Of a stretch of DNA of 25,931 nt, positions 4,797 to 25,570 are shown in pieces (the first letter of the stretch is position 1; each line of letters begins with the position of its first letter). The position numbers and the translations under genes are program-made. The notes under the pieces were generated by a model. That model did no database searches. It saw nothing but the letters and a program-made list of their open reading frames with translations, and was not told where the DNA came from. The stretch comes from an uncultured Dehalococcoidia bacterium (GTDB taxonomy: Bacteria; Chloroflexota; Dehalococcoidia; Lucifugimonadales; UBA2985): assembly GCA_964452695.1 (NCBI GenBank), contig CAYVMY010000007.1, forward strand, positions 575 through 26,505. Reading direction: 5' to 3'.

Positions 4797-5151
4797 GGGG
4801 ACGCGCGGATTCGACAGGGGGTGCCTCTTCCAGATTGCAGGCCGAGGTTCCGTCACCCTCGTAAATCAGACGGGAAACTGTAACTGGCGATAACAAACTC
4901 GCCGCTGCTGCCTAAATAAGGTAGCGCCGTCCATCCTAGCCTACCCTCGAGGGTGTGGCATGGGCGTCATAAAATCGAGGTGCGATATCCAGATGCAGAT
5001 ACGGATCATCTAAGTAAATATCTGTTGGCCTCAGAGAAACCCTAGCCGCGTGAGGTTCTCTGAGGTGAGAATTTTCACTCGGACAAGCCTGTAGTACATC
5101 TCCGGAGAGATCTCTTTGGACGGGGGGTTCGACTCCCCCCCGTCTCCACCA
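4797..5151 (+). ncRNA. ssrA: tmRNA; tag peptide (A)GDNKLAAAA at 4886-4915
   Basis: 5' GGGGACG...GGATTCGAC; 3' GGTTCGACTCCC T-arm; CGTCTCC-A-CCA pairs with GGGGACG; TAACT precedes resume codon GGC; follows smpB. Confidence 0.97.
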
Positions 5152-19541: not shown

Positions 19542-20306
19542 ATGTCTATCGAACAAACATATTTCAGGCCATATGCCCCACCCGCTAATGTACAAGCAAT
19601 CCTCCATAGATTAAGGCGAATGAATATGCCACTAAGGGTCAACAGAGATTTTCTACAAACTACAGGCATATCTGAAAGCATCATTCCAAGGGTCACATCA
19701 ACCCTACGATTCCTTTCACTAACTAATGAATTTGATCAACCTACTGACACACTCCGTAATCTCGCAAAAAGTACGGACGAGGAATACATAAATCTGCTGA
19801 AACAGGCCATACAAAAAGCATATGCAGAGGATTTTCGTACAATAGATCCCGGCCAAGATACGCAAGATAAGATAATCAACGCCTTTCAAAGGTATGTACC
19901 ACGCTCACAACACGGAAGACAAGTTACGTTATTTCTTGGATTATGCCGGGAGGCTGGTATTCCTACGCTAGACTTACCACGGCGTCGTAGTATGCAAAAC
20001 CACGGCATACCAGCGCCACGATACTCGAGCAAGGCACCTGCACAACGCGGGATTCGCGCTAACAGATATGCACAGGCTAACAAAGAATATTACAGCCTAA
20101 TAGGTATTAAGAAAAATACTGACAGTGATTCCTCCGGGCAAATCCTTGGAATTACCCTTGAAGATGCTGCTAACCTTACAAAAGAAGAATTTCGAGAGGT
20201 GTGGAATGCCATGGGTACACTTATTATCGCCAGGGCTAAGCGGCAGAAAACAAATATTGACCCTTCCCTTGAACATGACTCGAACAATTACCACCCTGAG
20301 TCTTAA
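19542..20306 (+). CDS. DUF5343-like (winged-helix-type) protein
   Basis: PYAPPAN, LRFLSL, LKQAIQKAY, TLFLGLCREAGI pattern recalled for DUF5343; basic low-complexity C-terminal half. Confidence 0.6.
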   Translation: MSIEQTYFRPYAPPANVQAILHRLRRMNMPLRVNRDFLQTTGISESIIPRVTSTLRFLSLTNEFDQPTDTLRNLAKSTDEEYINLLKQAIQKAYAEDFRTIDPGQDTQDKIINAFQRYVPRSQHGRQVTLFLGLCREAGIPTLDLPRRRSMQNHGIPAPRYSSKAPAQRGIRANRYAQANKEYYSLIGIKKNTDSDSSGQILGITLEDAANLTKEEFREVWNAMGTLIIARAKRQKTNIDPSLEHDSNNYHPES

Positions 20307-20394: not shown

Positions 20395-21525
20395 GTGACC
20401 AAAAAAACAGCGTTTATATACCAAGATGCTCTATCGCGCCATGTTCTCAGGGACGGTCATGTGATGGTTCCATCTCGGATCAGATACACCTACGAACTAC
20501 TTGAATCCTACGGGGCATTCCAACTACCCAACTCAATATTAATACAACCTAGAAACGCTGAGAGGCATGAGATATTGAGTTTCCACACTGAAACATACCT
20601 TAATGCGGTAGAAAAACTCAGTAGCGGATATGATCTTGCAAATCAAGGAGAGTTCAATTTCAGTGAAACGGGTGATAACCCAGTTTATGGTGGGATGTTT
20701 GAAGCATCTATGCTGTCTACAGGAGCTTCTCTATTAGCCACGGAAATGCTTATACGCGGAGATGCAGACATCGCTTTCAATTGCTCAGGTGGATTACATC
20801 ACGCTATGACAAACCATGCTTCAGGATTTTGTATATTTAATGACCCTGTGATAGCTATTAACCTACTATTGAAACACGGATTCAGGGTGGCATATATAGA
20901 TATAGATGCGCATCATGGGGATGGTGTGCAGCAAGCCTTCTATGGTTCTGACCGAGTTATGACTATATCTATTCATGAATCCGGTTCGTTTCTCTTCCCG
21001 GGCACAGGATTTACGCACGAAATAGGAGTTGGGCCTGGTATCGGATATTCCGTGAATCTTCCTCTCATGCCTAACACGCCAGATGAGGTCTACGCCCTAG
21101 CCAATTCAGAATTGATCTCGCCCATAGTGAAGTGGTTTGCTCCTGACATACTGGTTACTCAACTCGGAATGGACCCATATTTCAGAGATCCCATTACACA
21201 TCTGGGATTGACAATCCAAGGCCACGCACATTTAGTCAAATCCTTTAGAGATCTCACCAATTCCATTCCATGGCTAGCTCTCGGAGGCGGAGGGTACGAT
21301 ATCAGCGCTGTGATAAGAGGCTGGACTATAGATTACGGCATAATGCTAGACATGATTTGGCCAGACATAATACCAAGCAGCTACAAAGGGAACCACGGAC
21401 TTACAAATCTATACGAGCAAACCAAACCTGCTATAGATGAAGTCACGTTTCGAACTACAAATCAGTTTGCCAAAGATGGCATAGAGGAACTCAAAGACAA
21501 GGTTTTTCGCCTGCATAGTATATAG
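20395..21525 (+). CDS. acuC: Zn-dependent HDAC-family deacetylase (AcuC-like)
   Basis: GGLHHA, GFCIFND, IDIDAHHGDGVQ, LFPGTG, QLGMD...DP, GGGGY. Confidence 0.88.
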   Translation: MTKKTAFIYQDALSRHVLRDGHVMVPSRIRYTYELLESYGAFQLPNSILIQPRNAERHEILSFHTETYLNAVEKLSSGYDLANQGEFNFSETGDNPVYGGMFEASMLSTGASLLATEMLIRGDADIAFNCSGGLHHAMTNHASGFCIFNDPVIAINLLLKHGFRVAYIDIDAHHGDGVQQAFYGSDRVMTISIHESGSFLFPGTGFTHEIGVGPGIGYSVNLPLMPNTPDEVYALANSELISPIVKWFAPDILVTQLGMDPYFRDPITHLGLTIQGHAHLVKSFRDLTNSIPWLALGGGGYDISAVIRGWTIDYGIMLDMIWPDIIPSSYKGNHGLTNLYEQTKPAIDEVTFRTTNQFAKDGIEELKDKVFRLHSI

Positions 21526-23802: not shown

Positions 23803-24633
23803 TCAGCTAATAATTAGTGTATCCTCGCGATTGCCCCATTCCCTCCAAGATGCATCGTAATTCCGAGCCCTTGTATGGCCAATCAAACGTAGAGTAAATA
23901 ATCCGTGCGCCGCACGGATACCACCCTGTCAATAGGTTATAATTTCCTTATTTAAATCTATGCCTCTATCCAATAGCATGTCCCGGATATCTGACCTTGC
24001 CTTGAATTCGTGCGTAGAACTATCCACTGAATTCAGCCACTCTAAGTTAATTGCCCCTGGGATGTGCCCGACCCTATTATTATTTCTAGTATTATCACCC
24101 GTATATTCAGCTTCAGACCTCACATCCCATAGGGTTATAGAATCGCTGTCGATGCTTCTCTTTAATCTGTCTATATCACAAAACATTTCCGGGTTTAATC
24201 TGATAGTAAACGATCCATCGCCTCCAACATCTGGAACTTTAGTGGAGACTTCTCTTTCTTCTTTAATCCACTTCACCCACCCACCATCAAGGACAGAACA
24301 CGCACTGTGTCCGTTATAGTCTAGAACCCACCAGAGACGAGTAGCGCTCAACCCAAAATTGCCATCATATGCTATAACGTGAGTATCATCTTTTATGCCA
24401 AGACTCAACATTAATGAAATGAGTTCTTCTCCTTGCATAACATGAACAGGATCGCTCTGACCTTTAACGGTATTGTTTGGAATGTTAACTGAGTTAGGAA
24501 CATGTCCCAAAATATATTCCTCATGAGATCTAGTATCTACTATGGTAAAACGACTATCATTGACTAATTGCGCCAACTCATCTGTATCTATCAGTAACCC
24601 AAGGTATTCTTGTTTTGGCTCATAACCAACCAT
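23803..24633 (-). CDS. Tandem-domain rhodanese/sulfurtransferase, predicted selenoprotein (Sec at codon 235, TGA 23931-23929), 276 aa
   Basis: IVDTR, GHVPNSV, ATRLWWVL, DGGWVKW, DVRSEAEY, GHIPGA, then ITY-[TGA]-QGGIRAAHGLFTLRLIGHTRARNYDASWREWGN...IIS-TGA. Confidence 0.9.
23891..23927 (-). promoter_or_regulatory. Bacterial SECIS-like hairpin
   Basis: On the - strand right after the TGA: lower stem AGGGT/ACTCT, upper stem ATCCGTGC-ggc-GCACGGAT (8 perfect bp), G-initiated loop 17 nt after the UGA. Confidence 0.8.
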
Positions 24634-24820
24634 AGATCTCCCTTCACAAGCCGATTTTCATTGGGAATATTATCATATGATTCTAGACCATGGAAATTGC
24701 GTTGAATCGTTTTAGCGCTCATATATCAACTATGAACACTTTAGACATTTAACTATCTGCATTTAAACTGAAATTGGTTTAAAATTAGGATAAGTACATA
24801 ATCCAAGGAGCAGCGCAACA

Positions 24821-25570
24821 TTGATCCCACTGTCTGACCCCGACATAACCAGAGAAAATCGCCCATACATAACCATGACGATTATTGGCTTTAATGCCAT
24901 CATTTTCCTATACGAATTAACTCTTGGTAGCCTAGAAACGGCTCAGTTTTTCTACAAGTGGGGCTTCATACCATTGGAGTTCACAAGTGGTAAAGAATTC
25001 GAGAACCTCTTTACCGGAACTGAAATGCTTCCAATACAGTCGAGCATACCCACATGGGCCACTGCAATAACTTCCATGTTTATGCATGGGGGCTTTATGC
25101 ATTTTGGATCAAACATGCTATTCCTTTGGGTTTTCGGGGATAATATCGAAGACAGACTTGGCCATATCAAATTCATCCTATTCTATATTTCTTGTGGAGT
25201 TGCCGCACTTTTGTTTCAGGTCGCCACAAACGGACAAAGCCAAGTGCCCAATATAGGGGCAAGTGGAGCCATAGCTGGGGTACTCGGAGCTTATCTAGTT
25301 TTATTTCCTTACAGTAGGATCAACACATTGCTAATTATGTATTTCATAACGATCATTCGCATACCCGCAGTTTTCATGCTCGTTTTTTGGTTCATATTAC
25401 AATTTTTTGGTGGGATAGGGTCTCTCAGCACTGCAACTGCACACACTGGGGGCATTGCCTACTGGGCACATGTAGGAGGATTCCTGGCGGGAGTCATTTG
25501 CATAGTAATTTACATTAAAGCCAACGGGCTCCAAGTTTTCCCAAGGCGAAAGAATCAAGACTTCTATTAG
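24821..25570 (+). CDS. Rhomboid family intramembrane serine protease
   Basis: SMFMHGGFMHFGSNMLFLWVFGDNIEDRLG, GASGAIAGVLGAY, YWAHVGGF; AGGAG SD; TTG start. Confidence 0.95.
   Translation: MIPLSDPDITRENRPYITMTIIGFNAIIFLYELTLGSLETAQFFYKWGFIPLEFTSGKEFENLFTGTEMLPIQSSIPTWATAITSMFMHGGFMHFGSNMLFLWVFGDNIEDRLGHIKFILFYISCGVAALLFQVATNGQSQVPNIGASGAIAGVLGAYLVLFPYSRINTLLIMYFITIIRIPAVFMLVFWFILQFFGGIGSLSTATAHTGGIAYWAHVGGFLAGVICIVIYIKANGLQVFPRRKNQDFY

Follow-up and report, generated by a model that had tools for sequence, protein, structure and literature searches.

The window, i.e., the whole stretch of 25,931 nucleotides that was analysed, comes from an uncultured Dehalococcoidia bacterium and carries on its minus strand a gene predicted to encode a rhodanese with selenocysteine (Sec) at the catalytic position. 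The features of the gene and of its surroundings are as follows:

4797-5151, plus strand: tmRNA gene with the tag peptide GDNKLAAAA
18154-19197, minus strand: FtsZ
19542-20306, plus strand: DUF5343 protein
20395-21525, plus strand: histone-deacetylase-family protein
up to 23647 (end of the second gene): two Band_7/SPFH (HflK/HflC-like) genes
23803-24633, minus strand: predicted Sec-rhodanese gene, complete, 276 codons plus stop, with the ATG at 24631-24633
23833-24171, minus strand: C-terminal (catalytic) rhodanese domain, residues 155-267, the best PF00581 stretch
23929-23931, minus strand: in-frame TGA, codon 235, with Sec predicted at the catalytic position of the loop U-Q-G-G-I-R
23891-23927, minus strand: bSECIS element, assigned from its fold and from the comparison of Sec forms
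23803-23805, minus strand: true stop TGA, not followed by a SECIS; the homologues end at the same place
24821-25570, plus strand: rhomboid protease

The arrangement of rhomboid protease, rhodanese and two Band_7 genes was found, in whole or in part, in only four loci, all from the subclade of the window (L094, L095, L098 and L106); it was absent from the remaining 33 Sec loci and from all 65 Cys loci. Since it is kept in this subclade only, the neighbourhood gives no functional hint, and the assignment of a function from it was rejected.

In the list of open reading frames made with translation table 11, the rhodanese gene ends at 23929, i.e., at the in-frame TGA. Translation of the window gave 234 codons from the ATG to this TGA, ending in ...KEIITY, and a Shine-Dalgarno-like AGGGAG was read upstream of the ATG at 24638-24643. 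Beyond the TGA, the frame continues for 41 sense codons (QGGIRAAHGLFTLRLIGHTRARNYDASWREWGNREDTLIIS) before it reaches the second TGA at 23803-23805. An earlier reading made from the sequence only had proposed that the frame runs past the first TGA to a true stop at 23805-23803; translation confirmed this, and its coordinates and sequence details were all correct.

The continued frame encodes a tandem rhodanese. With Pfam model PF00581 (E = 4e-37), rhodanese similarity was detected in two stretches, and the better one, residues 155-267, spans the TGA. The closest solved structure was RhdA from Azotobacter vinelandii (PDB 1e0c; E = 9e-38; residues 11-273 aligned), and full-length alignments were also obtained with 1uar, 1urh and 1rhd. 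Two such domains in a single polypeptide of about 280 amino acids give the protein the architecture of the tandem PF00581 rhodaneses of the COG2897/SseA type. U235-QGGIR was aligned with C-QTHHR of the RhdA loop HCQTHHRS, and the aligned Cys of RhdA is presumably the catalytic Cys230. U235 thus takes the place of the catalytic nucleophile that opens the six-residue loop of the C-terminal domain, a place held by Cys in RhdA and in 65 homologous loci. The two domains and the six-residue loop starting at the catalytic residue are shared with RhdA and the other Cys-type tandem rhodaneses (TST/MST), whereas Sec stands for Cys and the loop reads UQGGIR here instead of CQTHHR in RhdA. The active-site motifs of TST and MST are CRKGVT and CG[ST]GVT, respectively, and UQGGIR has neither signature. 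Because the NCBIfam model of the SseA equivalog (NF008557, 3-mercaptopyruvate sulfurtransferase) scored 125 bits against a cut-off of 250, the gene was classified as a member of the family, but not as an SseA equivalog.

Two selenoprotein models, NF041203 (rhodanese_LYCAU, CxU) and TsoB (NF045694, UxxxxU), describe rhodanese-domain proteins in which, as in the window gene, Sec is located within or close to the active-site loop, but which differ from it in their single-domain or fusion architectures and in their motifs. The window gene is a member of neither: NF041203 scored 27.9 bits against a cut-off of 115 and matched the N-terminal domain only, and TsoB scored 22.9 bits against a cut-off of 805. 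The local sequence ITYU has no Cys at position -2 and, therefore, no CxU motif.

When homologues were aligned, the column of codon 235 held either Cys (TGC or TGT) or TGA. A scan with one genome per species revealed TGA at the catalytic-Cys column in 16 of 80 related loci, the others having TGC or TGT. In 18 of 30 relatives from the same family or order, the best orthologue had exactly one TGA, and this was located at the same column. Overall, 38 TGA loci (37 and the window's own), referred to here as Sec forms, were found versus 65 Cys loci, and the TGA-bearing homologues reached down to 35% identity.

A hairpin lies directly 3' of the TGA. Its 5' arm ATCCGTGC (23919-23912) and its 3' arm GCACGGAT (23908-23901) form an upper stem of 8 bp around the loop GGC (23911-23909), and the spacing from the UGA to the loop is 17 nt. 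A weaker lower stem is formed by the pairing of 23927-23921 with 23897-23891. The letters and positions agreed with those of the sequence-only reading, which had described an 8-bp hairpin with a GGC loop on a lower stem, 17 nt from the TGA, and had ascribed bacterial SECIS geometry to it. Published criteria for bSECIS elements comprise a loop of 3-9 nt, an upper stem of 4-16 bp, a G in the first two loop positions, a distance of 16-37 nt from the UGA and a minimum free energy (MFE) of -7.5 kcal/mol or lower (PMC13188914). With its 3-nt GGC loop, 8-bp stem, 17-nt spacing and MFE of -17.5 kcal/mol, the hairpin lies within the published limits on all four counts, which bears out the ascribed geometry. 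The fold had a z-score of -2.86, with 1 of 200 shuffles being as stable, and ranked first for downstream-fold stability among the 428 TGA-joined pairs of open frames in the whole genome.

The bSECIS overlaps the codons of the active-site loop GGIRAAHG. The hairpin, scored as present if at least five contiguous base pairs surrounded a 3-nt loop, was found in all 37 Sec forms; of the 43 Cys forms encoding the same QGGIRA peptide, a single one had it. Similarly, the Arg codon was CGT in 36 of 37 Sec forms versus 3 of 43 Cys forms. In the alignment of the 37 Sec forms (A2), 94.6% of the cells of the 7-bp stem with 3-nt loop were paired, and four of the seven stem pairs showed compensatory double changes, e.g., from CGTGC/GCACG to CGTTC/GAACG (L108, L121), CGAGC/GCTCG (L122) or ATTCG/CGAAT (L066). 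The covariation score was 0.157 for the real structure as compared to 0.000-0.024 for slid controls. Thus, the hairpin was conserved and covarying in the TGA forms only. The apical loop was GGC or GUC in all Sec forms and fits G[G|U]N. The lower stem is not claimed as a conserved part of the SECIS; 75% of its cells were paired and one pair covaried. Like the bSECIS of the E. coli fdhF type, the element is a hairpin directly 3' of the UGA within the coding region, with a G[G|U]N loop and with spacing and MFE in range; unlike it, the loop in the window is very small (3 nt). The rhodanese SECIS is of the ordinary proximal type.

Judged from these sequence data, 23803-24633 on the minus strand is very probably one tandem-domain rhodanese of the thiosulfate/3-mercaptopyruvate sulfurtransferase type (COG2897), in which Sec replaces the catalytic Cys. 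The earlier proposal that the organism decodes Sec and possesses a seleno-sulfurtransferase is supported by the conservation of the TGA, by the TGA-specific hairpin and by the sel genes found in the genome.

The genome (G000) is available as a 971-kb assembly of 63 contigs that is 62% complete and includes 16 assembled tRNA genes. The search for the Sec genes, which the sequence-only reading had named as a check, returned selD, selA with defects as assembled and a fragment of selB. The selD gene (C33:674-1589, plus strand) scored 249 bits against a cut-off of 125 and contains an in-frame TGA at C33:704 within the motif HCAG-U-ASKLSP, at the position that we take to be Cys17 of E. coli SelD; SelD itself is, therefore, a predicted selenoprotein. 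The selD hairpin AAGTCC-GUC-GGACTT, with a spacing of 17 nt, a 6-bp stem and a GUC loop, has a geometry like that of the rhodanese hairpin. A scaffold gap, filled with N, splits the selD gene. The selA gene (C8:4052-5335, minus strand; locus L008:1501-2784) scored 487 bits and, as assembled, shows an in-frame TAA-TAG at C8:5051-5056 and a frameshift near its 3' end at C8:4081-4094. Of selB, only the C-terminal 107 residues were found (PF09107 SelB-wing_3, the SECIS-binding winged helix; E = 2.5e-20), the remainder being missing because contig C53 ends within the gene. No tRNA-Sec was found above the Rfam RF01852 cut-off or by ARAGORN in the assembly; since this is 62% complete with 16 tRNAs only, the absence is uninformative.

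An alternative reading is that, in this strain, selA is truly inactivated and the UGA is read poorly or not as Sec (e.g., by near-cognate Trp or Cys), the rhodanese being a recent relic of a Sec gene. A TAA-TAG and a frameshift in selA, a tRNA-Sec that was not found and a selB that is mostly missing from the assembly fit this scenario, which we nonetheless regard as quite improbable. Logan contigs from other marine runs (X1 and X4), which represent related populations rather than reads of the strain, have GAA GAG at the position of the selA stops, and an X1 contig contains an extra C that restores the selA frame. Moreover, contigs of run X3 are 100% identical to the assembly and break at exactly both selA defects, which suggests weak coverage there. 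Given the intact contigs of other runs and the breaks in those of X3, the stops and the frameshift in selA are probably local assembly errors rather than signs of a dying gene. In addition, selD, the rhodanese and a third candidate selenoprotein (see below) all keep an intact UGA and SECIS, and L094, which is 90% identical, keeps everything.

Among the relatives, selA was intact in 27 of 30, and a tRNA-Sec match of more than 60 bits was obtained in 24 of 30. Nearly all relatives outside genus g2 possess selA, tRNA-Sec and the rhodanese orthologue together. In genus g2 of the same family (G001, G010 and G015; 89-91% complete), neither selA nor the rhodanese orthologue is present and tRNA-Sec gave no strong match; this one genus seems to have lost the Sec trait as a whole.

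A genome-wide screen for further Sec-UGA codons by downstream hairpin energy returned mostly false candidates. Among those rejected were the gene for the ribosome recycling factor on C1, which simply ends in a TGA stop, and spurious out-of-frame hits on C31, C3, C14 and C13. Only one candidate held up, a class I SAM-methyltransferase (PF13649) at C41:6966-7685 on the plus strand (locus L127:267-986), with a TGA at C41:7263 in the motif SIC-U-MP. Its hairpin GGACATC-GGA-GATGTCC (7 bp, 18 nt downstream) is similar in geometry to the SECIS elements of the rhodanese and selD. In G026, the only one of the 30 relatives with an orthologue (40% identity), this site is occupied by two TGAs in a row (UU), and distant full-length homologues have CC or RC there, with one SF. 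Two close homologues (94% and 84% identity) have their called start at the Met that directly follows the TGA. No NCBIfam selenoprotein-specific methyltransferase model was reached, and this methyltransferase with its CU/UU motif may represent an uncatalogued selenoprotein family.

If the first UGA of the rhodanese gene were a true stop, the product would be a 234-residue rhodanese without the catalytic loop, and the 41 downstream codons would remain untranslated. Gene callers and public annotation do give products of 233-234 amino acids, and this is the annotated length of the three closest database proteins (89, 72 and 51% identity). These were, therefore, called only up to the TGA codon, just as the sequence-only reading had anticipated that standard annotation would truncate the gene. 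The contigs of the three homologues (90, 75 and 55% identity), which come from independent Logan, ENA/JGI and NCBI assemblies, contain TGA at this codon followed by the identical hairpin, and their frames stay open for 41-43 codons past the TGA, up to a second stop. Within the 41 post-TGA codons, the window differs from L095 by 15 synonymous and 5 nonsynonymous changes and from L098 by 17 synonymous and 10 nonsynonymous changes. Since the differences are mostly synonymous, this stretch, which is conserved at the protein level, is translated and under purifying selection. It holds the active-site loop and the YDASWxEWG motif and aligns up to residue 273 of RhdA, while the shortened product would lack every catalytic element. 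Termination at codon 235 is, thus, very improbable.

A nonsense mutation or sequencing error that turned TGC or TGT into TGA, leaving a pseudogene or an artefact, is extremely improbable. The TGA is one base away from a Cys codon and local assembly errors do occur elsewhere (in selA and as N gaps), but 37 further loci, drawn from numerous independent assemblies, carry the same TGA together with a covarying hairpin that is specific to the TGA forms. As the loci are divergent, contaminant copies of one sequence were excluded as their source. Sequencing error and pseudogene were, therefore, rejected on the basis of TGA conservation. The possibility that TGA is recoded throughout the genome (as in genetic code 4 or 25), for which the in-frame TGA alone would speak, was likewise rejected, with a negligible probability, on the basis of stop-codon usage: TGA is an ordinary stop that ends 135 of the 585 open frames of at least 200 codons in the whole genome, as well as this gene itself, and the in-frame TGA is aligned with Cys rather than Trp or Gly.

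The distribution of Sec and Cys was placed on a tree of 101 sequences inferred by maximum likelihood. Within its Chloroflexota clade, the Sec forms (38 with that of the window) were basal and paraphyletic. A single large Cys clade (43 rows) was nested in the Sec forms, and three state changes suffice to explain the pattern. The Sec form is the rule in this Chloroflexota order. Whether this extends to Sec, and not Cys, being the ancestral state of the rhodanese in the whole marine/subsurface Dehalococcoidia-type clade is a tentative proposal, which we consider possible but rather unlikely.

Sec-containing rhodaneses of this type have been described before. "Rhodanese-related sulfurtransferase, COG2897" was among the 15 selenoprotein families first reported in 2005 from the Sargasso Sea metagenome, with three sequences (PMC1088965), and "Sulfurtransferase COG2897" was found again in Olavius symbionts (PMC1976440). 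More recently, form 4 of the rhodanese-like selenoproteins was defined by a COG2897-type PF00581 domain with a UxxG motif, represented by MCY3690685.1 (PMC13188914). The window gene has this motif (UQGG) in a COG2897-type PF00581 domain. Because of its rhodanese domain, its COG2897 architecture and its UxxG motif, it is a member of this known family. It shares with the family the PF00581 tandem type, Sec at the position of the catalytic Cys, the UxxG motif, the marine metagenomic origin and the way of prediction, via Sec/Cys homology and a bSECIS, and there is no difference in kind. The gene thus represents neither a new mechanism nor a new family. In the sequence-only reading, Sec-containing rhodaneses were considered reported but uncommon. 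The former is correct, as they have been catalogued since 2005; the latter does not apply to this lineage, in which the Sec form is usual. The COG2897 selenoprotein literature that was searched contained no mention of Chloroflexota or SAR202 and no report of experimental selenium incorporation, and a search of a literature collection for selenoproteins in SAR202 retrieved no paper. Hence, the lineage-wide spread of the Sec-rhodanese may not have been spelled out in print.

Following the established bacterial Sec pathway, we infer that the hairpin 3' of the UGA, with its apical loop G-G-C 17 nt on, would be bound at its apical part by SelB together with GTP and Sec-tRNA(Sec). With the UGA in the A site of the ribosome, SelB would then deliver Sec in place of release factor 2, and after the insertion of Sec the ribosome would continue for 41 codons to the real stop. 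In the resulting enzyme, the transferred sulfane sulfur (or selenium) would be carried on a selenolate rather than on a thiolate.

With regard to annotation, this gene is entered, like its orthologues from dozens of Chloroflexota genomes, as a "sulfurtransferase" fragment of 233-234 amino acids that lacks the active site, while the corrected models are predicted selenoproteins of 276-279 amino acids. If Sec were ancestral, an abundant ocean lineage would depend on selenium for a core enzyme of sulfur trafficking (or of selenium delivery to SelD), and the Cys forms would be secondary escapes from this dependence. Since the organism and most of its order are predicted to use Sec, selenium would be a relevant micronutrient for this marine lineage.
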